Source of the DNA: Patescibacteria group bacterium
GTDB taxonomy: Bacteria; Patescibacteriota; Patescibacteriia; Magasanikbacterales; GWA2-37-8
Assembly (NCBI GenBank): GCA_004321885.1
Contig: SCQK01000007.1
Span: 150,540 to 214,539 of the forward strand
Length of the DNA: 64,000 bases
Direction of reading: 5' to 3'
Shown here piece by piece: positions 2,073 through 63,740 of the stretch. The notes beneath the pieces were generated by a model, which searched no databases, was not told where the DNA came from, and saw only the letters and a list, made by a program, of their open reading frames with translations. The translations under genes were made by a program, and so were the position numbers. Position 1 is the first letter of the stretch. Each line of letters begins with the position of its first letter.

Positions 2073-2077
2073 AATTG

Positions 2078-2185
2078 CTGGGGCTCCATAGTCCGAAGTC
2101 TCGCCGCTGGCTCCATACTGTGTGTGGAGCCACAATGCACCCTGGCTCCATAGTCCCCGACTCAATCGGGGCTGTGGAGCCAGCC
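2078..2185. repeat. cluster of GGCTCCAYAG...CTRTGGAGCC hairpin repeats (intergenic copy)
   Basis: ggctccatagtcc...tggagcc arms repeated 3x; the same family sits inside the folC-like gene at 17929-18016. Confidence 0.7.
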
Positions 2186-2192
2186 ATCAATT

Positions 2193-3692: not shown

Positions 3693-3787
3693 AAAATCCA
3701 ACTTCAACATTTTTTTGTTCCAACTGCGGCGCCCAGTTCATGAAGTGGACCGGACGGCCCACCCACTTGAACTCGCAATATTTATGA
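3689..3787 (+). pseudogene. truncated, diverged duplicate of the radA 5' zinc-finger segment (32-aa ORF, ATGA overlap with radA)
   Basis: MKNPTSTFFCSNCGAQFMKWTGR... parallels the radA N-terminus FICSNCDAQFTKWVGKCLECGKWGT; ends TGA overlapping the radA ATG at 3784. Confidence 0.35.
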
Positions 3788-5220
3788 AAGATGGCTTTAA
3801 AACAATTTTTATCTGCTCAAATTGCGACGCGCAATTTACCAAGTGGGTGGGTAAATGTTTGGAATGCGGGAAGTGGGGAACAATTGAAAAATCCCAATTT
3901 CCAATTTCCAATTTCCAATCAAATTCCAAACTCCAAAATCCAAACACCCAAAATTATCCACCAGTAACGACGAAAAGACTTTCAGAGATAGACAGCGCGG
4001 AAGCCAAAAGGATAAAAACAAACATTGATGAATTAGACAGAGTGCTTGGAGGGGGGCTCGTGCCGGGCTCCCTTGTTTTATTGGGCGGCGAGCCGGGCAT
4101 CGGCAAATCCACTTTGGCAGCGCAATTGGCGGCCGCGATTCCCAACACCTTATATATTTCCGGCGAAGAATCCGCCGAACAGATTAAATTGCGCTTTGAG
4201 CGATTGGGGATTCCGGGTCAAGCCCGGAATGACAATAATGAGACCTTGCGCTTCGCGAACGCGACGAGCGTGGAGAGTGTGATAGCGGCCATGGATTCCC
4301 CCGTACTTAGTCGGGGGAATGACAGTAAAAACGAGACGGTCGGAATGACAAAACCACAACTCGTTATTGTTGACTCAATTCAGACAACGAGATCAGACGA
4401 AGTAGAGGGCGAGGCCGGAAGTATAAACCAAGTGCGGGCCTGCGCGGTTAAACTCATGGAAGCGGCAAAATCCACGGGCGTACCGATTGTTTTAATCGGC
4501 CAAGTGACCAAAGACGGCGCCGTGGCCGGCCCCAAAACCCTGGAACATCTGGTGGACACTGTGCTCTATCTGGAAGGCGACCGCTTTCACCAATTCAGAA
4601 TCTTGCGCGCCGCCAAAAATCGCTTTGGCTCAACCGATGAAGTCGGAATTTTTTCCATGGAAGAAAACGGCCTGCGAGAAGTGAAAAATCCATCGGCCGC
4701 GTTTTTGTCCGGACGCGAAGAAAATGTGCCCGGCTCTTGCGTTACCTGCCTGATGGAAGGCACCCGTCCCCTGCTGATTGAAGTGCAGGCGCTCGTAACA
4801 AAAACTAACTTCGGCTATCCCCAGCGCCGGGCCTCGGGCTTTGACCTAAACCGCTTGCAAGTGCTTATCGGCGTGCTGACCAAACGCGCCGGACTGCCGC
4901 TGGACACTTATGATGTATTTTTGAATGTCGTGGGCGGGATAAGCGCCGAGGAACCGGCCGTGGACTTGGCCGTGGTGCTCTCCATCGCTTCGGCCACGAA
5001 AAACAAACAACTGCCCAAGGGGCTGGCCGCTTTTGGCGAAGTGGGTTTGGGCGGCGAAGTGCGCGCCGTCAGCCAAGCCAAAAAACGTCTGGATGAAATC
5101 AAAAAAATGGGATTTGAATTCGCCGTGGTGCCGGCTTCTTCCGAAGAATACAAAGCGGGCGGCATCAAAATCGCGCCGGTAAAAAATGTGAAAGAATTAG
5201 TAGAAAGGATTGTCTTGTGA
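3784..5220 (+). CDS. radA: DNA repair protein RadA (Sms)
   Basis: C4 zinc finger, Walker A GGEPGIGKST, Lon-like C-terminal domain; carries three in-frame repeat insertions. Confidence 0.85.
   Translation: MKDGFKTIFICSNCDAQFTKWVGKCLECGKWGTIEKSQFPISNFQSNSKLQNPNTQNYPPVTTKRLSEIDSAEAKRIKTNIDELDRVLGGGLVPGSLVLLGGEPGIGKSTLAAQLAAAIPNTLYISGEESAEQIKLRFERLGIPGQARNDNNETLRFANATSVESVIAAMDSPVLSRGNDSKNETVGMTKPQLVIVDSIQTTRSDEVEGEAGSINQVRACAVKLMEAAKSTGVPIVLIGQVTKDGAVAGPKTLEHLVDTVLYLEGDRFHQFRILRAAKNRFGSTDEVGIFSMEENGLREVKNPSAAFLSGREENVPGSCVTCLMEGTRPLLIEVQALVTKTNFGYPQRRASGFDLNRLQVLIGVLTKRAGLPLDTYDVFLNVVGGISAEEPAVDLAVVLSIASATKNKQLPKGLAAFGEVGLGGEVRAVSQAKKRLDEIKKMGFEFAVVPASSEEYKAGGIKIAPVKNVKELVERIVL
3888..3922 (+). 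repeat. AATTTCC heptamer tandem repeat (x3-4) inside radA, translated as SQFPISNFQ
   Basis: aaaatcccaatttccaatttccaatttccaatc; same element in recG (x2) and the FemAB-like gene, always in the same coding frame. Confidence 0.8.
4208..4234. repeat. GGATTCC-(CGGGTCAAGCCCG)-GGAATGACA palindromic element inside radA
   Basis: ggattccgggtcaagcccggaatgaca; near-identical copy at 11819-11845. Confidence 0.75.
4293..4324. repeat. GGATTCC-CCCGTACTTAGTCGGGG-GAATGACA palindromic element inside radA (translated DSPVLSRGNDS)
   Basis: Copies at 11250-11280, 53496-53538 and 55068-55098 (opposite orientation). Confidence 0.8.
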
Positions 5221-5221
5221 C

Positions 5222-5292
5222 TGTCATTGCGAGGCCTGAAAGGCCGAAGCAATCCCTTGCAATGTGGGATGGGATTGCTTCGCTTCGCTTGC
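5222..5292. terminator. long imperfect palindrome (GTCATTGC...GCAATGAC arms) between convergent radA and recG; likely bidirectional terminator and repeat-family member
   Basis: gtcattgcgaggcctgaaaggccgaagcaatccc...gggattgcttcgcttcgcttgcaatgac. Confidence 0.5.
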
Positions 5293-5299
5293 AATGACA

Positions 5300-7474
5300 T
5301 TACTCCAAATGCACTGCATTCTCCCACTCTTTAATCTTCGCCGTTAAGGTCGGAAATTTCCCCAATCTCGGCGCCACTTGCCGCGCCGCCTCGCGCGCTT
5401 TTTTTATTATCTCTTTATCCGTCAGCTTGGCCAAACGCAAATTCATAAACCCGCTCTGGGCCGTGCCATAGACCTCGCCGGGCCCGCGCATTTCCAAATC
5501 CTTTTCCGCCAGCTTGAACCCGTCGTTATTTTTTTCAAAAAATCGCAGGCGCTCCAGGGCGCGCGGCGACTCCTGCTCCACGAACAAAAAACAATATGAC
5601 TGATGAACCGAACGCCCCACCCGGCCGCGAAATTGGTGTAACTGGGCCAATCCAAACCTCTCGGCCCCCTCTATCATCATCACGCTGGTGTTTGGAATAT
5701 CCACACCCACCTCCACCACAGACGTGGAAACCAAAATATCCAACTCGCGCTTCCTGAATTTTTCCATTGTCCCGTCTTTTTCTTTTGGTTTGAGGCGTCC
5801 ATGCAAATATCCCACCCGCAAATCCGGAAATATATTTTTTGAAAGTTTTTCAAATTCTGAAAGCACCGATTTCTTGTCGTCTTTTGGAAATTGGAAATTG
5901 GAAATTGGAAATTCTTCGTTGTTTGCCCCAATTAAAGGGCAAACAACGAAGCACTGCCTGCCTTTTTTTACTTGTTCGCGGATAAAAGTGTACGCCTTGA
6001 CGCGATTTACCGGCTCCACCAGCCGCGTCAAAATTTTCTTGCGGCCCGGCGGCAATTCGTTGATAATGGAAACATCCAGGTCGCCGTAAACCATGAGGGC
6101 CAGAGAGCGCGGTATCGGCGTGGCGGTCATGCTCAAAAAATGCGCGCCGCCTCCCTTTTCTTTTATCGTCTTTCTCTGCCCCACCCCGAAACGATGCTGT
6201 TCATCCACAATCACCAAACCCAATCTTTCAAACTCCACTCCTTCTGTCAGTAAAGCATGTGTGCCAATAATAATTTGAATATTATTACTCTTGATCTTTT
6301 CCAAAAAATCTTTTTTATTAAATTTTGAAAATTGGTCATTGGTCATTGATTGGAAATTGGAAATTGGAAATTGGGATTTTGAACCAGTCAATAAGCCCAC
6401 TTTAACTTTATGCCCAAGAAGATTAACGATTGAATTATAATGTTGCACCGCAAGTATCTCGGTGGGCGCCATCAGCACGGCTTGGTAGCCATTCAAAGCC
6501 GCGTTGTACATGGCCATAGCCGCCACCACGGTCTTGCCCGAACCGACATCGCCCGACAGCAGGCGATTCATCGGCGTGGTTTTTTGCAAGTCCTGTAAAA
6601 TTTCCCAGGCCGAAATTTTTTGCGTTTTGGTTAGTGTAAAAGGCAAACTCGCCACAAATTCCTTGATGGCGTTTTCGTTAAAAGCGAGGGACGGGGCTTT
6701 GGCGTCGGCTTTTTCCAGCCGCGACAGTTCGGCTTTAAGCTGAATCAAAAATAACTCATCAAATTTCAGACGCTCGGTGCTTTTGGCCAAATCAATTTCA
6801 TCTTTGGGAAAGTGAATACCCTGCAAAGCCGATGATAAAGGCGCTAAATCATACTTGTCTAAAATTTCATCAGGCAGCCATTCTTGCATTGCGGCCGATA
6901 ATACAATCACCTGGCTAACCAAAAAACGAATCTGTTTTTGGGTCAGCCCGGCCGTAAGCGGATACATCGGCACCAGTCGCGCCGTGTGGGTCGTATACAA
7001 ACCCTCCCCTTTCAGAGCCTGCCCTGAACTTGTTTCAGGGGGAGGGACAGAGGGTGGGGTATTCACTCGCTCATACACCGGCCCAATCATCTGCGCCCCC
7101 AACATATCGGTCCGCGCCTTGCCCGACAAAAAAACCTCGTCCCCGGGCCTAAGCGTCTTGCCAATAAACGGCTGATTAAACCAGACCACGCGCAAACTAC
7201 CGCTCGCGTCCGAAACCAGCGCTTCGGTGATGTTTTTTCTCTGACGCGGACTGCGCTTGTTGGCGATGAGCTCAACTTTGGCGCGCACTGTCACCGCCTC
7301 CCCGTGTTTCAGGTCGGCGATTTTTACCACGCTCCGAAAATCCTCGTAACGGAAAGGAAAATAAAAAAGAAGGTCGGCCGCCGTGGCCACACCCAAACGC
7401 TCCAGCCGCTTGGCCGTGGTCTTGCCCACTCGGGAAAGTTGTGAGATTGGGGTGTTTAAGTTCATAATCAGCAT
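5300..7474 (-). CDS. recG: ATP-dependent DNA helicase RecG
   Basis: Wedge domain, GSGKT, DEQHRFGV motifs; two in-frame heptamer-repeat insertions (FPISNFQ). Confidence 0.85.
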   Translation of the reverse strand: MLIMNLNTPISQLSRVGKTTAKRLERLGVATAADLLFYFPFRYEDFRSVVKIADLKHGEAVTVRAKVELIANKRSPRQRKNITEALVSDASGSLRVVWFNQPFIGKTLRPGDEVFLSGKARTDMLGAQMIGPVYERVNTPPSVPPPETSSGQALKGEGLYTTHTARLVPMYPLTAGLTQKQIRFLVSQVIVLSAAMQEWLPDEILDKYDLAPLSSALQGIHFPKDEIDLAKSTERLKFDELFLIQLKAELSRLEKADAKAPSLAFNENAIKEFVASLPFTLTKTQKISAWEILQDLQKTTPMNRLLSGDVGSGKTVVAAMAMYNAALNGYQAVLMAPTEILAVQHYNSIVNLLGHKVKVGLLTGSKSQFPISNFQSMTNDQFSKFNKKDFLEKIKSNNIQIIIGTHALLTEGVEFERLGLVIVDEQHRFGVGQRKTIKEKGGGAHFLSMTATPIPRSLALMVYGDLDVSIINELPPGRKKILTRLVEPVNRVKAYTFIREQVKKGRQCFVVCPLIGANNEEFPISNFQFPKDDKKSVLSEFEKLSKNIFPDLRVGYLHGRLKPKEKDGTMEKFRKRELDILVSTSVVEVGVDIPNTSVMMIEGAERFGLAQLHQFRGRVGRSVHQSYCFLFVEQESPRALERLRFFEKNNDGFKLAEKDLEMRGPGEVYGTAQSGFMNLRLAKLTDKEIIKKAREAARQVAPRLGKFPTLTAKIKEWENAVHLE
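5886..5914. repeat. GGAAATT heptamer x4 (in recG)
   Basis: ggaaattggaaattggaaattggaaattc. Confidence 0.8.
6331..6375. repeat. ATTGGTC x2 plus GGAAATT x3 heptamer repeats (in recG)
   Basis: attggtcattggtcattgattggaaattggaaattggaaattggg. Confidence 0.8.
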
Positions 7475-11249: not shown

Positions 11250-11280
11250 GATTCCCCCGTACTTAGTCGGGGGAATGACA
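11250..11280. repeat. GATTCCCCCGTACTTAGTCGGGGGAATGACA palindromic element next to the tRNA-Arg 5' end
   Basis: Identical to the radA copy at 4293-4324. Confidence 0.8.
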
Positions 11281-11298
11281 ATTTTTTGGGTGCGTTTT

Positions 11299-36990: not shown

Positions 36991-37040
36991 CCCCTCCCAT
37001 GCCCCTCCCCTAAAAGGGGAGGGATGAAAAGTGGGGTTGC
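36991..37040 (+). promoter_or_regulatory. CCCTCC/GGAGGG double-hairpin element in the rpmF 5' UTR
   Basis: cccctcccatgcccctcccctaaaaggggagggatgaaaagtggggttgc. Confidence 0.55.
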
Positions 37041-40358: not shown

Positions 40359-40925
40359 CTACTGTGGACGGACGAGCTGCATGCGGCGGAACTCGCGCCA
40401 CTTCTTACCGGAGAGGAAATACGTTCTCTTATCCTCTTCCGCTCCAGTCCAGTCCACATGAAGCTTGCACCTCACGCGGAGGCCGTGGTTGATCTCATCC
40501 TTGATCTCATCCTTGACGCCGACTATCCAGTCGACGATGGTGATGACGTCCAGCCCCCAGGCATCAGCTTTCCCACAGGGGACATGAGCAATGAGGACCA
40601 CGGTGTCAATCTCCTTGAGCTCCCGCGACTCGCGAATCTCCTCGAACAACATGTTGCCCTTCTCGCGACCGGCGGGATCCGGGCACTTGCGGTTCATCAG
40701 CAGAGGACCGCCGTTGATGGCGTGTAGGTGCGGCCGGGGCCGGCAGACACGCTCAATATACTTCATCTGATCGAGCGCCTGATCGCCATCGCCGCAGAGC
40801 ACCACGATCGCCCCGCCGCTGACATCCAACAATTTCGGCTCGACGTCCAGGAAAAAACCCTCTTCGCGCAGAACTGCCAGATCGTGCAACTCCTTCTCGG
40901 TAAGCTTACGGGCGTGTTTTCCCAC
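40359..40925 (-). CDS. beta-carbonic-anhydrase-like paralog (GC-rich; GTG start with SD)
   Basis: VVLCGDGDQ and IAHVPCGKADAWG motifs. Confidence 0.45.
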   Translation of the reverse strand: MGKHARKLTEKELHDLAVLREEGFFLDVEPKLLDVSGGAIVVLCGDGDQALDQMKYIERVCRPRPHLHAINGGPLLMNRKCPDPAGREKGNMLFEEIRESRELKEIDTVVLIAHVPCGKADAWGLDVITIVDWIVGVKDEIKDEINHGLRVRCKLHVDWTGAEEDKRTYFLSGKKWREFRRMQLVRPQ

Positions 40926-41413: not shown

Positions 41414-41447
41414 AAACCTCCCGGCTTAGCCGGGAGGTTTTGTTTTT
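41414..41447. terminator. bidirectional rho-independent terminator (aaacctcccggc-ttag-ccgggaggttt then T7)
   Basis: Ends the micro-ORF (+) and the PHP gene (-). Confidence 0.7.
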
Positions 41448-42751
41448 TAGAATAATCGCGACTGGCCTCCGCCCATTTTTTCACGGTCGCCCAGGGCGTT
41501 CACTGTTCCGAACACGCCGTCGTAACCGGGCTTTACTTTCACCCGGCCAACGCGCGCGTTGGCGATGGCCAAAGCGATATTTTTATCCGAAGCGTATTTT
41601 TTTATCTCTTCCAAATCAGCGTCCAATAAAATATGAAATTCACTGCCGATATTTTTAATCAGATTTTCATACTCTAACGCCACTTTTTTGCCGGCCGTTC
41701 CCACGCCGAATACCGCCGCGATTATTTCCCGCAAAGGCACGACGTACTTGTGCGGAATAAATTTTTCCGCCGGGATATTTTCTTCTTCGCGGTCAGCCAA
41801 ATCATCTACGCGATGCAAAACACCGACTGTTAAATTTTTTTTGCATTTGGGGCAAATATTTTTTAATTTTTTTGTTTCTTTGGGCGCCAGGCAAACCTCG
41901 CACGCCGCGTGTCCGTCAAAATGATACTTGCCCTCTTCGGGAAAAAATTCTATGGTGTGCAAAAACTTTCTCTTGTCGCCTTCTTTTATTATCCGCGTGA
42001 TTTCGCCATAAGTAATTTCGTTTTCTTCCGCAAAAGCGAACGCATTGGCCTCGCGGCCGATTTTGTCCGGACTGTGCGCGTCGGAATTGGACACCAGGGT
42101 AATATTATCCAGCTTTGAAAGACGACGGTTCATTGCCGGGTCGCTGGAGAGTCCGGTTTCTATGGCGCGGATATGCGGCGTTAACTCTTCAAAGCACTCT
42201 GTCAGCGAATCATAGCCGGATTTGGAGCCGAAAACCGCGAACCAGGGAGTCCAGGCATGGGCCGGAATGAGTAAAAATCTTTCGTCAATTTCTAAAAGCA
42301 TTTGCAAAACGGCTTTGGCCGATAAACCCATTATCGGCCGGCCGTCGGATTTTAGGTTCACGCTCTTTTTTTCAAACTGCGCGTTCAATTTTTCCACCGC
42401 GGCGATATTGGGCGCCAAAATCACCAAATGCAAACGGCGGGTTTTGTCTTGGTGTTTGTAGATGCAGGAAATCTCGGTGGAGAGGATGAATTTAACCCCT
42501 CCTTGTATCCCTCCCCTATTAGGGGAGGGGCAAGGGGTGGGGTTTTTCAATTCATACAATCCGCTCTCTCCAATCTCGGACAAATTTTCTTTTATATGCC
42601 CCAGCCAGGCCGGATGCGTGAAATCGCCGGTCGCTACAATATCAACTCCCTTGCGCGCGCAAGCCGCGGCGATTTTTGGCAATTCCAAATCAGGCGAACA
42701 AGCGCGTGAGTATTTGGAATGAATGTGAAAGTCAAGAATTTGTTTGAGCAT
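41447..42751 (-). CDS. PHP-domain protein with C-terminal zinc finger, endonuclease Q-like
   Basis: LDFHIHSKYS PHP motif; GHAACEVC...CPKC; in-frame CCCTCC/GGAGGG element (PTPCPSPNRGGIQGGV). Confidence 0.5.
   Translation of the reverse strand: MLKQILDFHIHSKYSRACSPDLELPKIAAACARKGVDIVATGDFTHPAWLGHIKENLSEIGESGLYELKNPTPCPSPNRGGIQGGVKFILSTEISCIYKHQDKTRRLHLVILAPNIAAVEKLNAQFEKKSVNLKSDGRPIMGLSAKAVLQMLLEIDERFLLIPAHAWTPWFAVFGSKSGYDSLTECFEELTPHIRAIETGLSSDPAMNRRLSKLDNITLVSNSDAHSPDKIGREANAFAFAEENEITYGEITRIIKEGDKRKFLHTIEFFPEEGKYHFDGHAACEVCLAPKETKKLKNICPKCKKNLTVGVLHRVDDLADREEENIPAEKFIPHKYVVPLREIIAAVFGVGTAGKKVALEYENLIKNIGSEFHILLDADLEEIKKYASDKNIALAIANARVGRVKVKPGYDGVFGTVNALGDREKMGGGQSRLF
42496..42545. repeat. 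CCCTCC/GGAGGG hairpin element inserted in frame in the PHP gene
   Basis: cccctccttgtatccctcccctattaggggaggggcaaggggtgggg. Confidence 0.75.
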
Positions 42752-52876: not shown

Positions 52877-52885
52877 ATTAAAATT

Positions 52886-52916
52886 GTCATTCCCGCGACG
52901 TACGTCGGGAGAATCC
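52886..52916. repeat. GTCATTCC-CGCGACGTACGTCGGGA-GAATCC element 10 nt upstream of the fba start
   Basis: Arms as in the other family members. Confidence 0.75.
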
Positions 52917-53030: not shown

Positions 53031-53063
53031 CCCTTTTTGTCCCTCCCCTAAGAGGGGAGGGAG
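53031..53063. repeat. CCCTCC/GGAGGG hairpin element overlapping the pfk 3' end (encodes the last 5 codons and stop)
   Basis: ccctttttgtccctcccctaagaggggagggag. Confidence 0.7.
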
Positions 53064-54289
53064 CTAACGACGGGTGCAGCCAGGCGATCGAGCGTGAAAA
53101 TATCGCCGACGAGCGGACGCGCATAGTTTATAAATTCTTGGGTCACCATGTTATCGCCGGCAATAAATTCATCGGGCATCTTTTTGGTTTTGCCGGCCAC
53201 ATCGCCCAAGGGCAATAATTTGTACTCTACAGCGTAATCGCCCACGCGGTTTATGGCCACCGATCCGTCCACGTTGTGCCAAACTGAGTACTGTACTGCT
53301 TTTTCGCCCACCTCGCGCGCTTCGTGCCTGTCTATTTCGCTGACACAACCCAAAAATGAGCGTTGTAAATATCCCAGGGTGTCGGCGCGTACCCGTTTGA
53401 TGCCTGTTTTGACCTTTACCAAACCAGCCAACATGTCTCCAAGGGCGCCCGAACCAGATAAGGTTACATTGCCGTGCGGGTCAACATCCAACCCTGGATT
53501 CCTGCTGGATTCCCCCGTACTTAGCCGGGGGAATGACATTGCCATCAAATTCCCTGCTTTGTCCGCGATCCCCTCAGAGACCGCCACCACGCATCGGCCA
53601 TATTTCTCGTAAACACTTTTCACGTCAACGCAAAATTTTTCCGCGTCAAAAGCGCGCTCGGGTAGATAAATCAAATGCGGTCCGTCATCGGGAAATTTCT
53701 TAGCCAAAACCGAAGCGGCTGTTAAAAAACCGGCATGCCGGCCCATCACCACCGCGATATACACGCCCGGCAAAGAACGGTTATCCAAATTCGCGCCGGC
53801 AAACGCGCTGGCCACATAACGTGCGGCCGAACCATAGCCCGGGCAGTGGTCGGTACCGACCAAATCATTGTCTATCGTTTTGGGGATATGAACCACGCGC
53901 AATTCGTAATTGGCTTTATTCGCCTCTTCGTTCACAATGCGGCAGGTCTCGGCCGAATCATTGCCGCCGATATAATAAAAATACCGTATGTCGTGTTTAC
54001 GCATCACCTCAAACATCTGGCGGCAATACTCGGCACCCGGCTTGTCGCGCGTGGAGCCCAAAGCCGCTCCAGGCGTGTCGGCCACGCGCTCCAGATTATG
54101 CGTAGTAGATTCGGTGAGGTCTAAAAAATTTTCTTTGATTATTCCCGACACTCCAAAACGGGCGCCGTATACTTTTGTTATTTCCGAAAATTTGCGCGCC
54201 TCCAAAACCACGCCGGCCAGGGACTGGTTTATCACCACGGTCGGCCCGCCCCCCTGGGCCACCAAAGCTTTACCGATTAGTTTGAACAT
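53048..54289 (-). CDS. pfk: 6-phosphofructokinase (PPi/ATP-dependent PFK-A family)
   Basis: GGGPTVVINQS, PFK fold; contains an in-frame palindromic element (MSFPRLSTGESSRNPG). Confidence 0.8.
   Translation of the reverse strand: MFKLIGKALVAQGGGPTVVINQSLAGVVLEARKFSEITKVYGARFGVSGIIKENFLDLTESTTHNLERVADTPGAALGSTRDKPGAEYCRQMFEVMRKHDIRYFYYIGGNDSAETCRIVNEEANKANYELRVVHIPKTIDNDLVGTDHCPGYGSAARYVASAFAGANLDNRSLPGVYIAVVMGRHAGFLTAASVLAKKFPDDGPHLIYLPERAFDAEKFCVDVKSVYEKYGRCVVAVSEGIADKAGNLMAMSFPRLSTGESSRNPGLDVDPHGNVTLSGSGALGDMLAGLVKVKTGIKRVRADTLGYLQRSFLGCVSEIDRHEAREVGEKAVQYSVWHNVDGSVAINRVGDYAVEYKLLPLGDVAGKTKKMPDEFIAGDNMVTQEFINYARPLVGDIFTLDRLAAPVVSSLPS
53496..53538. repeat. compound GGATTCCTGCT plus GGATTCCCCCGTACTTAGCCGGGGGAATGACA element in frame in pfk
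   Basis: Same element as 4293-4324. Confidence 0.8.
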
Positions 54290-54304: not shown

Positions 54305-54385
54305 TCTCGCTCTCCCCTTATAAAGGGGAGAGAAACACTCCCTCCCCTTGCCCCTCCCCTAAAAGGGGAGGGATAAAGGGTGGGG
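54305..54385. promoter_or_regulatory. two tandem CYCTCCCCT/AGGGGAGRG hairpins between the HD-gene stop and the pfk start; supplies G-rich SD for pfk
   Basis: ctctccccttataaaggggagag...cccctccccttgcccctcccctaaaaggggaggg. Confidence 0.6.
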
Positions 54386-54387
54386 TA

Positions 54388-55041
54388 TTAAAACTCTCCG
54401 CTCCATTCCTTGTCAAAATTCTTCAAAAACTCCTGCGTAAATTTAGCTTTTTTCTCGGCCAGCTTACGGGCGGTTTTGGTGTTCATCAATTTAGGCAGTT
54501 TCAAAATCCGCTCAAAAAACTGGTTGTAGGTAGTGCCCTCGCTGCGGCGGCGCTGGTATTCGTCTTGGCTGAGGCGCTTGCGCGGTTTTATTGCCGGGTC
54601 GTGCAAAACGCGCTTCACTCGTCCGCCAAACGCGCAAACCCGGGCAATGCCGATGGCCCCGAGCGCGTCCAGCCAGTCCGCGTCCTGCACGATTTTCCCC
54701 TCAATGCTATCCGGCGCTTTGGCCCCGTCGCCTTTGTAGTGGGCATTTTCCACAATATGCAAAATTTGCTCCTGTCTGGCATCGTCTATTTCCAATATAT
54801 CCATCATGCCGTGCAAAATCAAATGCCCTTTTCCCTGGTCAAATTCAAACTGTTTGTAATCGCCCAAATCGTGCAAAAGCGCCGACAGTTCCACCAATTC
54901 CAAATCGCCGCCTTCTTTCGCTTGCAGGCGCTTGGACAATTTCCAAACCCTCTCCAAATGAAACCAATCATTGCCGGCCGGGTCGCCAGTCATCTTTTTA
55001 CGCACGTATTCAGCGGTTTTTTTCACCAGTTCGGTACTCAT
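54388..55041 (-). CDS. HD-domain phosphohydrolase
   Basis: HD motif (LHDLGD...); SD GGGGAGG plus 6 nt then ATG (MSTELVKK). Confidence 0.7.
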   Translation of the reverse strand: MSTELVKKTAEYVRKKMTGDPAGNDWFHLERVWKLSKRLQAKEGGDLELVELSALLHDLGDYKQFEFDQGKGHLILHGMMDILEIDDARQEQILHIVENAHYKGDGAKAPDSIEGKIVQDADWLDALGAIGIARVCAFGGRVKRVLHDPAIKPRKRLSQDEYQRRRSEGTTYNQFFERILKLPKLMNTKTARKLAEKKAKFTQEFLKNFDKEWSGEF

Positions 55042-55067
55042 AATTTTCCTCCCCACCGCCCAAAATT

Positions 55068-55098
55068 GTCATTCCCCCGACTAAGTACGGGGGAATCC
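55068..55098. repeat. GTCATTCCCCCGACTAAGTACGGGGGAATCC element (reverse orientation of the radA copy)
   Basis: Upstream of the HD gene. Confidence 0.8.
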
Positions 55099-55271
55099 AG
55101 GGTCAATATAGCTAAGTCCACTCCAATTTTATCGCAAAACAGCGTAAAGGTCAAACGAAAAAACCGCCAAATTAAAAACCGGCGATTCAGAAAAACCGCC
55201 GGTCGCAGAAGAATAATCTGCTGGTGTGACACGGAGACGAAATACTCTCGCCTCCGCGTTATGTAAAAGTG

Positions 55272-56606
55272 CTACTCGCGGCCGCGCTGGCCGCGGTTGT
55301 TGCCACGGTTGCGGCCGCCGCGCTTCTTGGCGTCGCCCTTGCCCTCGCCCTTCTTGGGCTTGGACTCGGGGGCCTTGCGGCACTCGCCGAAACGCGGGTT
55401 CTCGCGCCGCTCGCGGTCCGCTTCGGCGGCGAGCTGGGCCTGCCAGGCCTTCTCCTGGAGGCGAATGTCCTCCGCCTCGTGGAAAGCAGCCACGGCGACG
55501 TCAAACTGCTCATCCGAGAGCCCGGCGGCCCTGGCCAAGAGCCGTGCCACCTTCTCGCCCTGCTCGTTCTCCGCCTGGACCATCCTGTCCACAGCGGCAT
55601 AGCGCAGGATGAGAAAGCCCTCCATGTGCTGGCCATGCGACTCGAGCACGGCCGCCGCGATGTTCTTCACGACCGCCGGCTCCAGCTTGGAATCGGCCGT
55701 GCGCAGGCAGGCCACTATCTCGTTCTTCACGAGTTCGCGCTCCACCTGCTGGGCATTCTTCTTTGCCTCGGCCGCGAGCCGGAGAGCCCTCTCCTCGGCC
55801 GTTTCCGGCCGGGGGCACTCCATCAGACGCGCGAACTTGGAGTCGCGCCCGAGGAGCACTCTATCCAACTCCTGAAAAACCTCGGGAGGCACGACATCAA
55901 ACCGCGCATCCTTGCCCCACGCCCCGACGAGGTCGTTGATGGTGTTGAAGAGCTTGGAGAACTCTTCCTTTCGAGTCTCCAACGCTTTCAGGTGATCAGG
56001 GTCGGCGTTCGGCCGGCCAGCGTACCTGTCCGCCTTGAAGCGGAAATGCTTCACAGCGCGACAGAGCCAGCCACGGAAGGCCAAAGCGTAGGCCCAGGTC
56101 GCGAAGACCAAGGCCGGAAGGAGAATGGAATACTTCTCCTCGAGCTTGCGAACCGCCTCGGGCCGCGGGTCCTGCATCCCCTCCTGCTTGGGCTCGGCCA
56201 GCTGGACCTTGGGGCCCACCAGCTTGGCCTTGATCTCCTCGGCCGTGAGGGGCCGCGGCAGCTGGGGGATGCCCAGCTTGTCGCGCAAGGCCGGCTTGGC
56301 CTGCGCGAGTGCCTGGCGCACACGCGCCTGGCGCGCCTCCTCGGCCTTGCGGGCCTGACGCTCGGCCTCCTCACGCTCGCGCCGCTCGTTCTCCAGGCGC
56401 TCGGCCTCGAGCCGGGCCTGCTCGTCACGCCGCTCCTTGGCGAACATCTCGACGATCTCGCGATCGCCGAGGATGTCCTCCACCGTGGCCTCGACGAGCG
56501 CGGCGTTCTCGCTGATGAAGGCCTGCGCGCGCTGCGCAAGCCACTCCTGTGCCGGCATCCCGCCCTGCACCAACTGCAGGGCGTTACTGCTCTGCCTGGT
56601 CTCCAT
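55272..56606 (-). CDS. GC-rich (~65%) ER-repeat / RGG-tail protein with one TM (hypothetical; probably horizontally acquired)
   Basis: AAG/GAG/CTC codon usage unlike neighbours; start taken at METRQSS; the + strand mirror ORF was rejected. Confidence 0.45.
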   Translation of the reverse strand: METRQSSNALQLVQGGMPAQEWLAQRAQAFISENAALVEATVEDILGDREIVEMFAKERRDEQARLEAERLENERREREEAERQARKAEEARQARVRQALAQAKPALRDKLGIPQLPRPLTAEEIKAKLVGPKVQLAEPKQEGMQDPRPEAVRKLEEKYSILLPALVFATWAYALAFRGWLCRAVKHFRFKADRYAGRPNADPDHLKALETRKEEFSKLFNTINDLVGAWGKDARFDVVPPEVFQELDRVLLGRDSKFARLMECPRPETAEERALRLAAEAKKNAQQVERELVKNEIVACLRTADSKLEPAVVKNIAAAVLESHGQHMEGFLILRYAAVDRMVQAENEQGEKVARLLARAAGLSDEQFDVAVAAFHEAEDIRLQEKAWQAQLAAEADRERRENPRFGECRKAPESKPKKGEGKGDAKKRGGRNRGNNRGQRGRE

Positions 56607-56851
56607 TTTCCTGTCCTTTCTGCTCCCGCCCTTACGGGGCAAAATTTTCAAGACCCTTTGGTCCAACGCACCCGCGCTGGTAAAGAGTCTTCCACCAAAA
56701 AATACGACAAAAAATCCCATTCTTCGGCGACAAAATTGTCAAAAAACAACGAGATAGTATAGCACAAAATCGCCCACTTGTCGAGGGTCTACCCTCGTAT
56801 TTTGCCTAAAATTAGCCGAAATTATAAAAACAGCACAACAAAAAACACGCC

Positions 56852-56968
<117 letters not shown>

Positions 56969-57037: not shown

Positions 57038-57343
57038 GCGAGGGAAAGCACAGCTTAATGCTTTTGTCGTACGCTCGACCTATTAGTACTCCTCCGCTCA
57101 AGCCATTACTGGCCTTACACGTAGAGCCTATCAACCTTGTAGTCTACAAGGGGTCTCAACGAACATTAATCTTGAAGACGGCTTCACGCTTAGATGCTTT
57201 CAGCGTTTATCCGTGCCGAACGTAGCTACCCGGCAATGCCCTTGGTAGGACAACCGGCACACCAGAGGTTCGTCCACTCCGGTCCTCTCGTACTAGGAGT
57301 GAGCCTTCGCAATGTTCAACGCCCGCAACAGATAGGAGACCGA

Positions 57344-57664
57344 CAATTTTGTTACATTCCCGACTTTCCGCCGACTGGCGGACGGGACGGCGCATTATTT
57401 CTAACACGCTCTGCATGTCGCCATGCAGTTCGGACTATATCTTCCCTGAACCTTATTGGTTCGCGGGTCTAGCGTATAGTCTCTGAGGATTCTCTCTTTG
57501 AGAGTCTTTCCTGCTGGTTGTCTGCACTTGCCGCTTTATTACTTATAAAATAAGTAGCGCAAGATACTTTGGTTTCACTCCTAAATGAAACCTTCCAGAG
57601 TTTCCAGCATTTAGCTAGATTTATAGACAGCGCGGTTTGTGGCTAAGATTAGCCAAACTCTTCC
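57344..57664 (-). mobile_element. group I intron, ORF-less (321 nt), at E. coli L2593-like site (GAGACAGT|...|TCGGTC)
   Basis: 5' exon ends U, intron ends G; S-box AAGATATAGTCC present. Confidence 0.65.
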
Positions 57665-57708
<44 letters not shown>

Positions 57709-57744
57709 TGGCGAACAGCCAAACCCTTGGCAGCTTCTCCACCG

Positions 57745-57780
<36 letters not shown>

Positions 57781-57819
57781 GGACCGTCTATATGGACTAT
57801 CGGGTCCGATCAGCCTGTT

Positions 57820-58683
57820 CATATTACTTCCCCTATTACTAGGAGTACTGACTATATCTTCATCCCAACTTTGCCCAGTCGGGAGTACGGCATATTGTGG
57901 CGCGCGATTTCCTTCACTATGAATGCGCCACCTCGGCCTTAGGCCTCAGTCGATACGGGGTTCTTCATCAATTTTGTACCGCATGCTTTCTATCACATAC
58001 GGGGCAATTATTTTTTGCAGTTTCCTGGTGTCCTTCACGCAAAATTTCAAATCCATGGCTTTTGTTTTTTTTAATTCCAGCTTTGGGTGTAGATTGAAAT
58101 TTTTCGCGAAGACTCGTTTCAGTCCGCTGATGCTTTCGGCGTTCAGCTTGGACAGATAGATATACGCGGTTTTATCGCGTTTATAATAATATCCATCATC
58201 CATAAACCATACTGCCAATACTAGAGGATCAAATAATTTTTCAATTATTTTTGGAACTTGCTTGTCGCCGTTTTCATAAAACAGCGCATGCAATTTTCCA
58301 AACTCTGGCGATGAATGCGACTGGCATCGGTAATAGGCATATTGTTTCCGCCAAATCGGATTAAAACGCGTCAAATACTTTGGTTTTGATTGCATATATC
58401 GTTCAAGCTCGCGCCACTTCCAGAAAATATATTCTTTCTGACGCGAACTATGCTCCAAACGCAATCGCGCGTTTTTCTCGCCGGTTTTTTGCAAAAAACC
58501 ATCGCCTAATACACAGCCAATCGCTATACTTCTTTCGCGTTGATTCATATGTAATGTAATTTAACGCGATGAAGAACTTCCCACGGTATTCCCCTTCCCG
58601 TTTGGGATTCGGGGTTCACCGTTATTAGCCGTTTTCTTGTTCCGATATTACTACCGGAACGGGACAACAACCCTTTCGGGTCT
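57820..58683 (-). mobile_element. group I intron at the L2449 (omega/I-SceI-type) site GGGGAT|...|AACAGGC with LAGLIDADG ORF
   Basis: Exons rejoin to GGGGATAACAGGCTGAT; S-box GAAGATATAGTCAG. Confidence 0.7.
57946..58548 (-). CDS. LAGLIDADG homing endonuclease (intron-encoded)
   Basis: IGCVLGDGFL plus second motif. Confidence 0.75.
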   Translation of the reverse strand: MNQRERSIAIGCVLGDGFLQKTGEKNARLRLEHSSRQKEYIFWKWRELERYMQSKPKYLTRFNPIWRKQYAYYRCQSHSSPEFGKLHALFYENGDKQVPKIIEKLFDPLVLAVWFMDDGYYYKRDKTAYIYLSKLNAESISGLKRVFAKNFNLHPKLELKKTKAMDLKFCVKDTRKLQKIIAPYVIESMRYKIDEEPRID

Positions 58684-58872
58684 ATCCCCGGAGTAGCTTT
58701 TATCCGTTGATCTTCCACTCTCCTATATGAGGTGGTCGGTTCACTAACTTCCGCTTTCGCGACTGCTCGGGTTGTAGCCCTTGCAGTAAAGCCAGCTTGT
58801 GCGTTTGCGCGTCCAGCTCGATTTCCATCCGAGCTAAGCTGACCTTTGTAAACGCCTCCGTTACATTTTAGG

Positions 58873-59809
58873 CAATTGTGTTACCTTAATTTTCCTAACT
58901 TATATTCCATTTTCGGAATAATATAGGGCCTGATGATATTAACGAATTCCTGCACCGATGACGCGAGCAAGTAAATCTGCTTGCCTTCTTTCTGCTTTCG
59001 CAGTTTGGTTGCTATCTTGTATTTATTCGACAGAACCCTTCGCAATCGGCGCAGACAAATATCGGAATAACATTGTGTGTTTAGAATTAACGCCCGATGA
59101 TGATTTGATTTAATGGAACCATCATCCATAAACCATACTGCCAATCCGAGCGGCGTCAGCCATCGATGAATCAATTTAGGCACGGTCTTCTCGCGGCCGC
59201 GATAGAATTGCGCGGCGTAGAAGCGCAGAGCCGGATGACTCACTGTGTTAAACCAATATTTTTTGTACAGCTTGCCGTTCACTGTCTGGTCTTTGATTTT
59301 AGGAGGAGTTATCACCCAATCCTTGAACTTGTCATAAATCCAATCAACGTATGCCTTTTGGCTAAGTCCGTGCTGGACCATTAACCGATAAGCGACGCCG
59401 GAATTATGATTAGATAGGTGACTGTCTCCCAGTAATGTTCCGACCAGTATCTCACGCTGTACTTTTGTTAATTTCAATCCCTTCTTATACTCTCTTAACT
59501 TCAGAGTATTCATAATTTTAAGGACCAAATTTAATTTGGTGCTCTATGTCGCCATAGAGTTCAGACTATATCATTATCCCGACTAAGTCGGGATACCTGG
59601 CATGTAGTCGTTGAGGGGTCATCCCGATTAAATTGGGAGACTTCCCTGCTGGTTGACCGCAGGCGCGCATTTTCACCCCGACGTAACGTCGGGGTAGCGC
59701 GGCCATACTCCGGTTGTTCTAGCATATAGCCAAGTTTGCTTTCAATGTCGCCATTGAAACGCCCTTCGTGATGTTCCAACATTCGTTGGCGTAACGGACA
59801 TCACGACTC
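58873..59809 (-). mobile_element. group I intron in the domain V region (~E. coli 2260) with LAGLIDADG ORF; boundaries tentative
   Basis: Exons rejoin to GGGGCGGTTGCCT|CCTAAAATGTAACGGAGGCG; S-box ATGATATAGTCTGAAC; contains two CCCGAC...GTCGGG hairpins. Confidence 0.5.
58881..59513 (-). CDS. LAGLIDADG homing endonuclease (intron-encoded)
   Basis: VGTLLGDSHL plus second motif. Confidence 0.7.
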   Translation of the reverse strand: MNTLKLREYKKGLKLTKVQREILVGTLLGDSHLSNHNSGVAYRLMVQHGLSQKAYVDWIYDKFKDWVITPPKIKDQTVNGKLYKKYWFNTVSHPALRFYAAQFYRGREKTVPKLIHRWLTPLGLAVWFMDDGSIKSNHHRALILNTQCYSDICLRRLRRVLSNKYKIATKLRKQKEGKQIYLLASSVQEFVNIIRPYIIPKMEYKLGKLR

Positions 59810-60103
59810 AGGCAACCGCCCCAGTTAAACTACCCACCAGACACTGTCTCCTTTGGCCGATTCAGGTCAAAAGATTAGGCATAAATTCATCTAAGGGTGG
59901 TATTTCACTGTCCCCCGACTAGGTCGGGGTCCCACCTATTCTAAACATAAATAAGCTTATGCCAATATCAAGTTGTAGTAAAGCTTCACGGGGTCTTTTC
60001 GTCTAGTTGCGGGTAGGAGGCATCTTCACCTCCCTTGCAATTTCACCGAGTCCCTCGTTGAGACAGTCGCACTATCGTTATGCCATTCATGCGGGTCGGA
60101 ACT

Positions 60104-60811
60104 CCAATTGTTATCACTGTGTTTCCACAATGTTCAGACTATACTTTCATCTTCCCGACAATATTTAGGAGATCTGTTTTTAAATAGCGGCGCGCTCCGA
60201 TGTTATTCATCGTATAGGCACTGGCTATAATTTCCTTTATACCATTTGTCGACAAGTGAAGATTTGACTTCATTGAGCGACAAATTTTTCTCAATATTTC
60301 AAAGTCATTTTGCTTTGAAGTTCTTAGAGGGTATCTGTCAAAGTGCGGCATGATTTTTTTTATCAAATCATCCAGACTTCGCACCTCGTATTTGTACGTC
60401 TGATCATGACTGTCAAAGCGAATACCGCCACAAGCAAAATAATTTTTCAATTCTTCCAGAACCGATAAATTACGCTTGTTTTGGCTGACCGTGAAACTTG
60501 GTCTGACTTCAATCCCGACGGATAATTTATCGCGTCGTGAGAACGAAACCAGAAAGCTTCCTTCGCCATCAACAATTCCCGAAACGTACCAAGGATTTAT
60601 CTCCATATACTGTCTCCTTTCTTGGGAAGAGCCGGCGTGTTGCCCGCTTTTGGCAGGCCTCATCTTTCGATTCAGTCGTTACGGGGCTTTGCTTCCCAGC
60701 AAAGCTTCCCACGGTATTCCCCCATAGGGGTTCACCGTTATGAGCCGGTTTGCTAATATCGCGTCACCGCGATACTCGGGCAAGTATTATCTCCGACCCG
60801 GAGATTTGTTC
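60104..60811 (-). mobile_element. group I intron at the L1931-like site TTGTCGGGT|...|AGTTCCGACC with LAGLIDADG ORF
   Basis: S-box GAAAGTATAGTCTGAAC near the 3' end. Confidence 0.65.
60139..60606 (-). CDS. LAGLIDADG homing endonuclease (intron-encoded)
   Basis: VSGIVDGEGSF; SD AAAGGAGA before the ATG. Confidence 0.75.
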   Translation of the reverse strand: MEINPWYVSGIVDGEGSFLVSFSRRDKLSVGIEVRPSFTVSQNKRNLSVLEELKNYFACGGIRFDSHDQTYKYEVRSLDDLIKKIMPHFDRYPLRTSKQNDFEILRKICRSMKSNLHLSTNGIKEIIASAYTMNNIGARRYLKTDLLNIVGKMKV

Positions 60812-60831
60812 ACCCGACAAGGAATTTCGCT

Positions 60832-61303
60832 CGACGCTTCCTTTTTAATAGCGTTGGACTATATCTTCATCCCCGACTAAGTCGGGGAGCATAGCGTTTA
60901 GTCTCTGAGGATCCTAAACTGTTAAGCCCCTGTTACTGCGTAGTAACATTTAATCGCAAATGCGAATTATCCTCAATCATTATTTTTATAACACCATCGC
61001 ATAAGCGCTCGCTAAAGCACATCTGCAAAAAATTTTGTAGTAGTTTGAAGGTGATATGATTAATGATTAGAGGGGCCTAACGCAATTTTGTTATTAATAA
61101 CATAATTGCATTAAATTAGTTTCCTGCTGATCATCCCGCTTGGGACTTCCCAGCATATGGCTATGATTGGATTATACCACACATCACTGTGCGGTAAGGC
61201 AGCTTTTTTAATGGCTTTGATTTGATCCTCTGCTGATCACGATTGTTTACATATCGCTATCTCCGTCCCAATCCTTGTGAATTCGTGGGTAAACGAATTC
61301 ACA
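60832..61303 (-). mobile_element. group I intron, ORF-less (472 nt), at the L1917-like site CCTAAGGT|...|AGCGAAATTCC
   Basis: Separated from the next intron by a 20-nt exon; S-box GAAGATATAGTCC. Confidence 0.65.
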
Positions 61304-62111
61304 ACCTTAGGACGGTTATAGTTACCGCCGGCGTTCATCAGCGCTTCGGTTCAAGGCTGCCTTCCCGACTAGGTCGGGAAATGACCTCTCCCCTTAACGT
61401 TCTGACACTGGCCAGGCATCACCCCCTATACTTCAGCTTGCGCTTTTGCAGGGAGCTGTGTTTTTGGTAAACAGTCGCAGTGCGTCTTTTGTTGTAATCC
61501 CGACTAAGTCGGGACGGGCCTTATCCCTAAGTTACGGCCGCTGTATTGCAGAGTTCCTAAACGAGGGTTCTCTCGTACGCCTTGGTCTTCTCGACCTATC
61601 CACCTGTGTCGGTTTACGGTACGGTTGCGCGCGACTTAACGATTCATGCCTTTTCTAGGCACCTCTCCGTCTTAAGTTGACTCCACCCGAGGGCTTTGTC
61701 TTCGCCTTGCGGCACGTGTATAACCAAAACACGCTTAAAATTTTGAGATGCGCAACATGAATCAAATCGCGCCCAGTGCTGGAATATTAACCAGCTCATC
61801 CATCGACTACCCCGCCTGGCGGCGGACTCGCCTTAGGACCGACTAACCCTGGGTCGATTCTCGTTGCCCAGGAAACCTTGGATTTTCGGCGCTCCGGATT
61901 CTCACCGGAGTTTTTGCTACTTATGCCTGCATTCTCGCTTCCTTGCACTCCACCACGGCTCACGCCTATGGCTTCAGCGCGCAAGGAACGTTCCTCTACC
62001 ATTCATCTGTATATAAATATACAAACAAATTCGCAGCTTCGGTACCATATTTAAGCCCCGTACATCTTTGGCGCTAAAACTCTTGACCAGTGAGCTGTTA
62101 CGCTTTCTTTA

Positions 62112-62147
<36 letters not shown>

Positions 62148-63504
62148 AAAGAATTAGAACCGCCTTGTTTGCACTTAACATGGATTTAGGGACCTTAGCT
62201 AGCGATCTGGGCTGTTCCCCTTTTGACAATGGCGCTTAGCCGTCACTGTCTGACTCCTGAGATCTGGCTACTGGCATTCGGAGTTTGATTGAAAACGGTA
62301 TCCCGAAGGACCCAATTCTCATCCAGTGCTCTACCGCCGATAGAAACTCTCAAGGCTAGTCCTAGAACTATTTCGAGGAAAACCAGCTATCACCGAGTTC
62401 GATTAGAATTTCTCTCCTATCCACAGTTCATCTCCGCGTGTTGCACGGCGCGTGAGTTCGGACCTCCCCTTCGATTTCTCGAAGGTTCATCCTGACCATG
62501 GATAGCTCACCCGGTTTCGGGTTATGTGCGTGCCACAAACGCCCTTTCAGACTCGCTTTCGCTGCGCCTACGCCCCAGAGGGGCTTAAGCAAGCGGCACA
62601 CATCACACTCGCAGGCTCATTCTTCAATAGGAACACGGTCACCCTTGCGGGCTCCCGCTCTTTGTAAGCGCATGGTTTCAGATACTATTTCATCGCCCTC
62701 TCCGGGCTGCTTTTCACCTTTCCCTCGTGGTACTTGTCCACTATCGATCACCAAAAGTATTTAGTCTTGGACCATAGTCGGCCCGGCTTCAGACGGAATT
62801 TCACGAGTTCCGTCCTACTCAAGAACACTAGCTATGATTTTTTAACTCCTTTCGCGTACGGGACTATTACCCTCTCTGGTTGTTCTTTCCAGAACATTCT
62901 ACTAGGAAGGTTAAAACGCTCACCCGACTTTGCAGAAAGTCGGCGCTAATGTCTTACAACACTCCACAAACAACGGTCTGCACCTTTAAGCCGCGTCAAA
63001 TTAATCTTGCGATCAACCGTTCGCGGCAACATTTATGGAGTTTGGACTTTTCCCTTTTCGCTCGCCGCTACTAAGGGAATCTCTTCGATTTATTTTCCTC
63101 TGGCTACTGAGATGTTTCACTTCGCCAGGTCTTCTTCATGCGGCTATGTATTCACCGCACAATGATCTCTTGCCAATTCCATCTCCAAACTTTTGCTTGA
63201 ACAAGATTGGCTTAGCGTTTCTTTCAGAAACGGAATTGGCAAGAGATCGGGTTTCCCCATTCGGAAATCCCCGGGTCAAAGGTTGCTTGGGACCTCTCCG
63301 AGGCTTATCGCACCCTGCAACGTCCTTCATCGTCTTTTGGTGTCAAGGCATCCGCCATGCGCCCTTGGTAAAATTGCGCACGACAGAAGCACTAAATTGT
63401 GCTTCGTCGCTTACTACCCTATTGCTTTACCACCACACCAAAATTTTTTGGTGTGCGTGGTTTATTTTAAATTGTCAAAGTGCTTTCTTTTGTCGTCCGT
63501 CTCT

Positions 63505-63670: not shown

Positions 63671-63710
63671 TGTTCGTCTCTATGGAACAACATTTGTGTT
63701 TGTTTCACTT

Positions 63711-63740
63711 GTCATTCCCCCGACTTAGTCGAGGGAATTC
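63711..63740. repeat. GTCATTCCCCCGACTTAGTCGAGGGAATTC element
   Basis: Member of the radA/pfk family. Confidence 0.7.

Follow-up and report, generated by a model that had tools for sequence, protein, structure and literature searches.

Within a 64,000-nt stretch of contig SCQK01000007.1 from a Patescibacteria group bacterium (assembly GCA_004321885.1; the whole stretch is hereafter termed the window), a GC-rich gene with the working name X, also used for its product, occupies positions 55272..56606 on the minus strand. Analysis of X and of related loci read as contigs (labelled L0xx) revealed that, in each genome read, a high G+C content (GC) characterises the coding sequence of the family member. 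Sequence searches indicated that X is a member of a small, previously undescribed protein family, confined to contigs of the candidate phyla radiation (CPR)/Patescibacteria type. We regard it as about an even bet that X is strongly transcribed, that its basic-tailed product probably binds RNA, and that some force actively preserves its preference for G/C-ending codons.

The coding sequence of X, an island of high GC at third codon positions (GC3), comprises 444 codons plus a stop codon and represents a shorter version of a 482-aa mechanical open reading frame (ORF). The ATG at 56606 was taken as the start because it is supported by the NCBI annotation and by the family N-termini in the alignment, and because a ribosome-binding site and a conserved leader hairpin fall inside the longer ORF. 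A word-indexed protein search retrieved an NCBI entry identical to X (hypothetical protein EPN28_02435, Patescibacteria group bacterium). The GC of X reached 67.5%, with values of 0.72, 0.42, and 0.88 at the first, second, and third codon positions (GC1, GC2, and GC3), respectively, compared with a GC3 of 0.40–0.76 in all other long ORFs of the window, and GC counted over 400-nt segments was 0.62–0.72 inside X versus ~0.45–0.55 in its flanks. Relative to 21 window genes, X strongly preferred AAG for lysine (97% versus 25%), GAG (93% versus 30%), CAG (100% versus 47%), and CTC (51% versus 11%). Its amino-acid composition was GC-shifted as well, with Ala, Arg, Gly, and Pro accounting for 36% of the residues. 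The original prediction had described a GC-rich gene with sharply deviating codon usage, wedged between an HD-domain gene and the rRNA operon, and both points were borne out, with codon preferences inverted and the order 5S rRNA, X, and HD gene running entirely on the minus strand.

An exhaustive phmmer search against 1.84 billion representative proteins uncovered 18 full-length homologs of X (380–456 aa, 25–35% identity, E values from 5e-25 to 9e-5). The family shares an N-terminal "LTVDDVL" module, an E/R/K/A/Q-rich helix, and "LREKLGLxPLTxEE", followed by the central motifs "IPEAVxxLxxxFGxxLPxxVFxxxxxAxxFRGWL", "AWG", and "RFYWLTQxPxVETxEEK", and by the C-terminal motifs "MAxRLxKKY", "AAIxRM", and "AKxYAKAAGMTDEEL" ahead of a K/R/G/N/Q-rich tail. 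The Pfam, NCBIfam, PHROGs, and PADLOC profiles gave no usable match, and no profile family drew hits from two or more of the 19 members. The word-indexed search was flooded by low-complexity candidates and, also when alignments were used, gave nothing beyond the query and a few close relatives. A metagenome scan with a sub-alignment of the family added one redundant locus, and no relevant earlier account of genes like these in Patescibacteria turned up in the literature searched. Twelve family genes on 18 contigs (NCBI, ENA, JGI, and Logan; different samples) were read in their DNA context, and all 12 were located in low- or mid-GC CPR-like contigs. Besides the window assembly, the X-bearing genomes include GCA_964360135.1, GCA_964592785.1, and GCA_041643055.1.

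In 10 of the 10 compositionally distinct contexts tabulated, the GC3 of X was 0.77–0.91, compared with 0.25–0.65 in its neighbours, and the copies in L026 and L027 both had a GC3 of 0.90. Third-position A made up 1–9% in all family members and AAG 88–100% of the lysine codons. The bias was uneven between synonymous families, AAA being used at 0–12% versus 5–32% for GAA, while in L015 and L025 GGT (61–67% of the glycine codons) was preferred over GGC. A meta-profile of 11 loci revealed a GC of 0.28–0.51 in the 150 nt upstream; no more than 30 nt from the start codon it exceeded 0.6, and it dropped again past the stop codon and terminator. In L013, a 290-nt spacer with 37–45% GC even separates two GC-rich genes. 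The rise and fall in GC therefore track the coding-sequence boundaries and exclude an AT-rich, host-like promoter and leader. Being family-wide and confined to the coding sequence, the high GC is not the footprint of a recent import from a high-GC donor. The original prediction had also raised the alternative of a conserved CPR gene with normal composition elsewhere; CPR homologs do exist, but the composition is abnormal in all of those read, an outcome foreseen neither by the transfer reading nor by that alternative.

The island of X is preceded by what appears to be a complete CPR-type expression cassette with an AT-rich promoter and leader, which argues against a foreign donor. On the minus strand, a promoter-like site with an extended -10 (TCGACA-N17(TG)-TATACT, 10 of 12 matches, TG present) was located at 56756..56784, and a TTGACA-N17(TG)-TATAAT-like site was found in 10 of 11 family loci, 67–215 nt upstream of the start codon. 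Further upstream (56799..56817, minus strand), the motif GGCTAATTTTAGGCAAAAT, read by eye, is a candidate UP element or operator; by eye it is related to (A)TTAGCCAAAAT, which several family loci carry 10–25 nt ahead of the -35. With transcription starting as inferred from the -10, the 5' leader would span ~143 nt (56607..56749, minus strand) and contain, on the same strand, a hairpin AGACTCTTT...AAAGGGTCT (56651-56690, RNAalifold), a small hairpin (56628-56640), and the ribosome-binding site AAAGGA (56614-56619). This hairpin, as AGACTCTT...AAAGGGTCT (window 56690-56651), was common to five leaders according to RNAalifold, with 17 pairs of which seven showed compensatory changes, a modest support given five sequences and a small covariation term. 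Two overlapping terminator-like hairpins with T-runs lie 3' of X (55161..55204, minus strand).

At the level of the message, the native X mRNA was locally more structured than synonymous shuffles, with z-scores of -5.5, -2.9, -5.7, -4.9, -3.3, and -1.3 (mean ~-3.9), compared with a mean of ~-1.5 for control genes. Canonical three-G-run G-quadruplex motifs were absent from both strands. A codon set shared with highly expressed genes was rejected as the source of the bias, since in L024 the genes for S2, EF-Ts, and S1 had a GC3 of only 0.39, 0.34, and 0.31 and in L017 the EF-P gene one of 0.51, as opposed to 0.77–0.80 for X in these two contigs.

As modelled by AlphaFold2 with the family alignment, X is laid out as a short N-terminal module, a ~60-residue charged helix, an all-alpha domain, and a disordered K/R/G-rich tail. 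The charged helix, E/R/A/Q/K-rich in the sequence at residues 65–93, extends over residues 49–111 (56274..56462, minus strand; pLDDT ~90) and possibly forms a coiled coil; it was already part of the original prediction, and across the family its composition is kept but not its sequence. Residues 150–402 (55401..56159, minus strand) fold into a compact all-alpha domain with a pLDDT above 90 (92.6 when the domain was modelled alone), for which no fold match was found in the PDB or BFVD libraries searched. Residues 1–14, 131–144, and 419–444 are disordered in the model. The stretch formerly taken for a transmembrane segment, residues 159–185 (56052..56132, minus strand), corresponds to the conserved helix LPxxVFxxxxxAxxFRGWL with the invariant A174 and R178. 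Its best 19-residue Kyte-Doolittle mean in X is 1.68 and it is hydrophobic in the window protein only, the aligned segment carrying D/E/K/R/N in most homologs. Because this stretch is polar in most homologs and packed inside a helical bundle at pLDDT >90, X is not a membrane protein, and the model describes a soluble, all-alpha protein with a basic disordered tail. That K/R/G/N/Q-rich tail (residues 416–444; 55275..55361, minus strand; pLDDT <50) reads KKGEGKGDAKKRGGRNRGNNRGQRGRE over residues 418–444 and contains one RGG and four RG in 27 residues. The original prediction had likened the tail to RGG tails; that of X is basic and RG-rich and nearly all members possess a basic tail, and the homolog tails are K/G/N/Q-rich with few RG dipeptides, being K/G/N-rich in lower-GC hosts. 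A disordered Arg/Lys/Gly tail on a folded or oligomerising module is also known from RGG/GAR-box and basic-tail proteins (nucleolin and fibrillarin with their GAR segments; Lys-rich-tailed HU and Hc1-type proteins). X differs from these in lacking an RRM, KH, HU, or histone-like domain, and its RNA binding is predicted only.

The gene neighbourhood points in a similar direction. The 5S rRNA gene lies directly upstream of X in the window (56856..56962, minus strand), and in every context read a translation-apparatus gene (5S rRNA, tsf, efp, or truD) precedes X on the same strand, immediately except in L013, where two genes lie in between. Flanking genes comprised truD, a deoC-like aldolase, glmS, cofD-like, MJ0043-like PHP, rpsB, tsf, ruvA, gyrA, efp, and 5S/23S rRNA genes, arranged in at least five contexts (5S–X–HD, 5S–X–aldolase, truD–X–aldolase, tsf–X–ruvA, and efp–X). 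The order truD–X–deoC-like aldolase recurs in L015, L016, and L025, and X adjoins the aldolase gene in L013, L014, L018, L022, and L027; 5S and X are likewise adjacent in L018 and L019, with the 5S gene of L013 lying two genes upstream. These neighbours, together with the basic tail, suggest that X may have an RNA- or ribosome-linked role.

A second GC3-rich family of basic-tailed zinc-ribbon proteins, here called Y (227–319 aa, four CxxC motifs), was encountered just upstream of X. Copies were identified on the plus strand of L013 (1242-2201), L023 (91-984), and L015 (147-830), adjoining X in L013 and L023, and the L013 protein ends in an RGG-rich tail (GGGKGGRDNGRGGDRERGGGNRGRW). The GC3 of Y was 0.86 in L023 and 0.53 in L015, versus ~0.35 for the L015 neighbours, and in L013 the source gene call (1131-2264, minus strand) is an antisense shadow of Y. 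Family Y was not found in the 64-kb window. Moderately raised GC3 was also observed in a 162-aa hypothetical gene of L024 (7446-7934, plus strand; 0.68 versus ~0.3 in its neighbours) and in truD of L025 (163-1131, plus strand; 0.65 versus 0.47 for truD in L015). In the window, a 188-aa hypothetical gene without a PADLOC match (40359-40925, minus strand) has the second-highest GC3 (0.76) and may be another member of a GC3-elevated gene class.

The protein diverges far faster than its surroundings. Where syntenic neighbours were 57–88% identical, X reached only 27–33%. Across the syntenic contigs L013, L015, and L025, X was 30–33% identical, while for the same contig pairs the identity was 57–74% for the aldolase, 71–78% for the nucleotidyltransferase, 83–88% for GlmS, and 80–84% for the CofD-like protein. 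In the close trio L013/L026/L027, Nei-Gojobori estimates for X gave a synonymous divergence (dS) of 0.08–0.19, a nonsynonymous divergence (dN) of 0.07–0.13, and a dN/dS ratio (omega) of 0.48–0.84, compared with 0.37–0.64, 0.05–0.08, and 0.10–0.17, respectively, for the adjacent genes. All three codon positions of X differed to about the same extent, the second one least in two of the three pairs. Counted by eye in the alignment, L013 and L026 shared ~93% identity over the segment from the 3' end of Y through the promoter and leader. Their DNA downstream of X was far more diverged, and L027 could not be aligned upstream of about -55, giving an apparent breakpoint ~55 nt upstream of the ATG. This mosaic divergence, seen in one trio of related contigs, suggests allele exchange, so that the low dS of X has two readings, namely synonymous-site constraint or a younger coalescence of X through recombination.

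To account for these features, we propose a gene-specific fixation bias toward G/C-ending codons that would keep the composition of X in place, the most likely force being selection on the translated mRNA. What is selected may be a message that is stable, structured, and poor in U/A, or else wobble-free decoding through NNG/NNC codons. X itself would be an abundant protein that oligomerises via its helix and binds nucleic acid, probably RNA, via its basic tail, and that evolves fast, with related strains exchanging its alleles. Three findings speak for selection on the codons or the mRNA, namely the boundaries limited to the coding sequence, the uneven synonymous bias, and an mRNA more structured than its shuffles; such selection is ranked above GC-biased gene conversion as the more likely explanation. 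More tentatively, and with rather less confidence, a CPR lineage may keep X, possibly together with Y, in a private and nearly A-free set of G/C-ending codons, conserved across deep divergence although the protein changes rapidly, such that the composition is itself the selected trait. It could then act as a means of regulation or stabilisation built into the gene, for example through a structured, RNase-resistant mRNA or translation by C34/G34 tRNAs only, with an abundant, ribosome- or RNA-associated product. Codon-adapted highly expressed genes and "modification-tunable" stress transcripts share with X a strong codon bias, a reduced dS (the lowered synonymous divergence of X is as expected for a translationally optimised class), a strong promoter, and a preference for C-/G-ending codons read by Watson-Crick pairing. 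X departs from this class in that its bias is absent from the genes for ribosomal proteins and elongation factors in these genomes, whose preferred codons it does not share, and in that its protein is fast-evolving.

Several points weigh against the proposed selection on the message. The z-scores of X overlap those of the controls truD (-5.3), CofD (-3.0), and S2 (-2.9), and the shift toward GC-rich amino acids would be expected from general GC pressure. The low dS in the trio is equally explained by recent allele exchange, which fits GC-biased gene conversion, and that mechanism is favoured by the mosaicism, the high omega, and the GC-shifted amino acids. Moreover, just 12 of the ~25 family genes were read in context, and the function suggested for X is drawn from architecture and gene neighbourhood alone.

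GC-biased gene conversion is the best-surviving alternative, though we hold it to be unlikely. X would then be a recombination hot spot whose alleles are swapped among CPR strains, and biased mismatch repair would raise GC at all free sites and speed protein evolution, selection on codons or the mRNA playing no part. A hot-spot gene of this kind is Fxy in the mouse pseudoautosomal region, and X resembles this type in its local, very high GC3, its accelerated protein evolution, and its signs of recombination. The far lower silent divergence of X and its upstream region relative to adjacent genes, the L027 breakpoint, the high omega, and the shift of both GC1 and amino acids are all in line with this mechanism. 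The enrichment, however, stops at the coding-sequence boundaries, even around the L013 spacer, and the unequal treatment of AAA and GAA and the preference for GGT over GGC are not predicted by a uniform weak-to-strong bias. To our knowledge, the GC3 excess of X (+0.3 to +0.55) is far above any effect reported for bacteria. Recombination-associated GC3 elevation as such has been documented in bacteria (PMC4450053).

A distinctly less probable alternative is a cassette circulating within CPR, in which X, sometimes with Y, would derive from an unsampled GC-rich, CPR-specific pool of episomes or viruses and be repeatedly re-acquired at a few sites. Cassette mobility within CPR is possible given the different contexts and the mosaic divergence, and the number of contexts, the much greater divergence of X than of its syntenic neighbours, and the presence of the GC3-rich, basic-tailed Y beside X in L013 and L023 are compatible with such a pool. 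Nevertheless, no contig placed X in a GC-rich or mobile-element context, no mobility genes adjoined it, promoters and leaders were AT-rich, and the viral collections searched were blank.

The original prediction itself had interpreted X as probably gained by recent horizontal transfer, possibly from a high-GC donor or a phage; this reading, under which its composition would not yet have ameliorated, now appears very unlikely. Horizontally transferred atypical islands do resemble X in their sharp discontinuity in GC and codon usage relative to the host and in their hypothetical products, and both the composition and the codon usage of X are extreme outliers. The family also occupies several chromosomal contexts, and at six loci from distant relatives (HD protein 53–59% identical) the gap between the 5S and HD genes measures 81–464 nt and contains no gene, which, taken alone, looks like an insertion in the window lineage. 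Against this, the same GC3 excess recurs in every homolog read, down to 25–35% identity and with partly conserved synteny, and the linkage from 5S to X is common to L018, L019, and L013. The atypical GC is limited to the coding sequence; outside it, promoter, leader, and intergenic DNA alike are AT-rich, of host type, and marked by family-specific motifs. The sequence and profile searches that had been suggested as a check thus turned up a CPR-type family in place of a donor: no homolog of X was detected by tblastn in 50,697 phage records or among BFVD folds (plasmids were not searched), and none in a high-GC context among the 1.84 billion representatives. Neither an integrase nor a tRNA or mobility gene flanks X, and the att-like repeats that might have marked an insertion amounted to a single 11-mer (TGACAATTTTG) among direct and inverted repeats, which is no more than chance would give and belongs to a dispersed repeat.

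Dual coding, in which an antisense ORF would be a second gene and A-ending codons would be avoided to keep its frame open, is even harder to credit. The antisense ORF (55269..56762, plus strand, 497 aa) appears to be a by-product of the near absence of sense TTA, CTA, and TCA codons: its GC1, GC2, and GC3 mirror the sense frame, and since it is a codon-aligned mirror, its stops correspond to exactly these three codons. The frame is fully open in six of the ten members scanned, and L027, outside these ten, has no frame-breaking codon. TTA/CTA/TCA were observed seven times versus 23 expected from other A-ending codons, and the near-equal rates at the three codon positions, with position 2 lowest in two of three pairs, would also suit a second coding frame. 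The frame is broken, however, in L014, L017, L023, and L025, and background genes show observed/expected ratios of 0.47–0.76, so that after correction ~14 codons would be expected and the depletion is marginal. No ribosome-binding site or promoter was seen for the antisense ORF, whose product, rich in Leu, Ala, and Gly, is a mirror sequence of the sort expected from shadow ORFs. It is best classed among these, as already anticipated by its description as a phantom, and its status as a real gene is unsupported.

An assembly chimera or contamination, to which the composition jump alone might point, can be given practically no weight, as an independent 1814-bp Logan assembly of run SRR8426592 matches window positions 55081-56894 exactly and crosses both junctions, and the pattern is repeated in all 12 family genes read.

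The surroundings of X in the window showed further features. Downstream of X, the HD-domain gene (54388-55056, minus strand) is followed by genes for a phosphofructokinase and a class I aldolase. The HD gene has a promoter-like site TTGACC-N17-TAAAAT at 55126-55154 (minus strand) within ...TTGCGATAAAATTGGAGTG, and this region aligns with the 5S–HD spacer of the Magasanikbacteria locus L004 (...TTAGTGATAAAATTCAAGTG), indicating that the HD promoter is conserved with or without X. In L008, from a Magasanikiibacteriota metagenome-assembled genome, the 5S-to-HD gap (3238-6001) measures 2.7 kb and contains three ORFs of normal composition, all unrelated to X: one of 281 aa, a second HD paralog of 252 aa, and, on the opposite strand, one of 200 aa. 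The site downstream of 5S is thus variable in this group. Upstream of 5S, at least two group I introns (57411-57693 and 59542-59780) interrupt the 23S rRNA gene (57075-63378, minus strand), and three LAGLIDADG-like ORFs (57946-58548, 58881-59528, and 60139-60663) are located in its AT-richer inserts. A split 23S with introns is typical of CPR rRNA genes.

Two families of dispersed repeats were also detected in the window. The palindromic repeat (GGA)TTCCCCCGTACTTAGTCGGGGGAATGACAA occurs in six copies versus 0.01 expected: 4297-4325 (+), 11253-11281 (+), 52884-52912 (-), 53511-53539 (+), 55066-55094 (-), and 63709-63737 (-). These copies are partly intergenic, lying upstream of the HD gene and beside a tRNA-Arg gene, and are also found, apparently in frame, inside the phosphofructokinase gene, the N-terminus of the aldolase ORF, and ORF 3715-5220, in which respect they resemble palindromic elements inserting into coding sequences. 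The hairpin repeat CCCTCCCC-N5-GGGGAGGG has four copies versus none expected (37003-37023, 42509-42529, 53041-53061, and 54352-54372). One of them is in frame within the MJ0043-like PHP gene (41447-42751) and encodes ...PCPSPNRGGIQGGV..., and the others are located at the 3' end of the phosphofructokinase gene and between this gene and the HD gene.

Atypical GC and codon usage are routinely read as signs of recent horizontal transfer. For X, this inference from composition fails, since the anomaly is inherited with the family, is bounded by the coding sequence, and has lasted to ~30% identity. Genes of this kind can also mislead gene callers, as in L013, where the shadow was annotated in place of Y. 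Small-genome bacteria are thought to lack effective codon selection; if the bias of X is selected, it would be an unusually clear case of selection on coding-sequence composition in such bacteria, and if it results from biased gene conversion, this would be far stronger and more localised than in the bacterial reports known to us. CPR ribosomes are already known as unusual, and the present finding draws attention to a basic-tailed protein, unannotated and probably abundant, which, judging from gene order, may be tied to the CPR translation apparatus.

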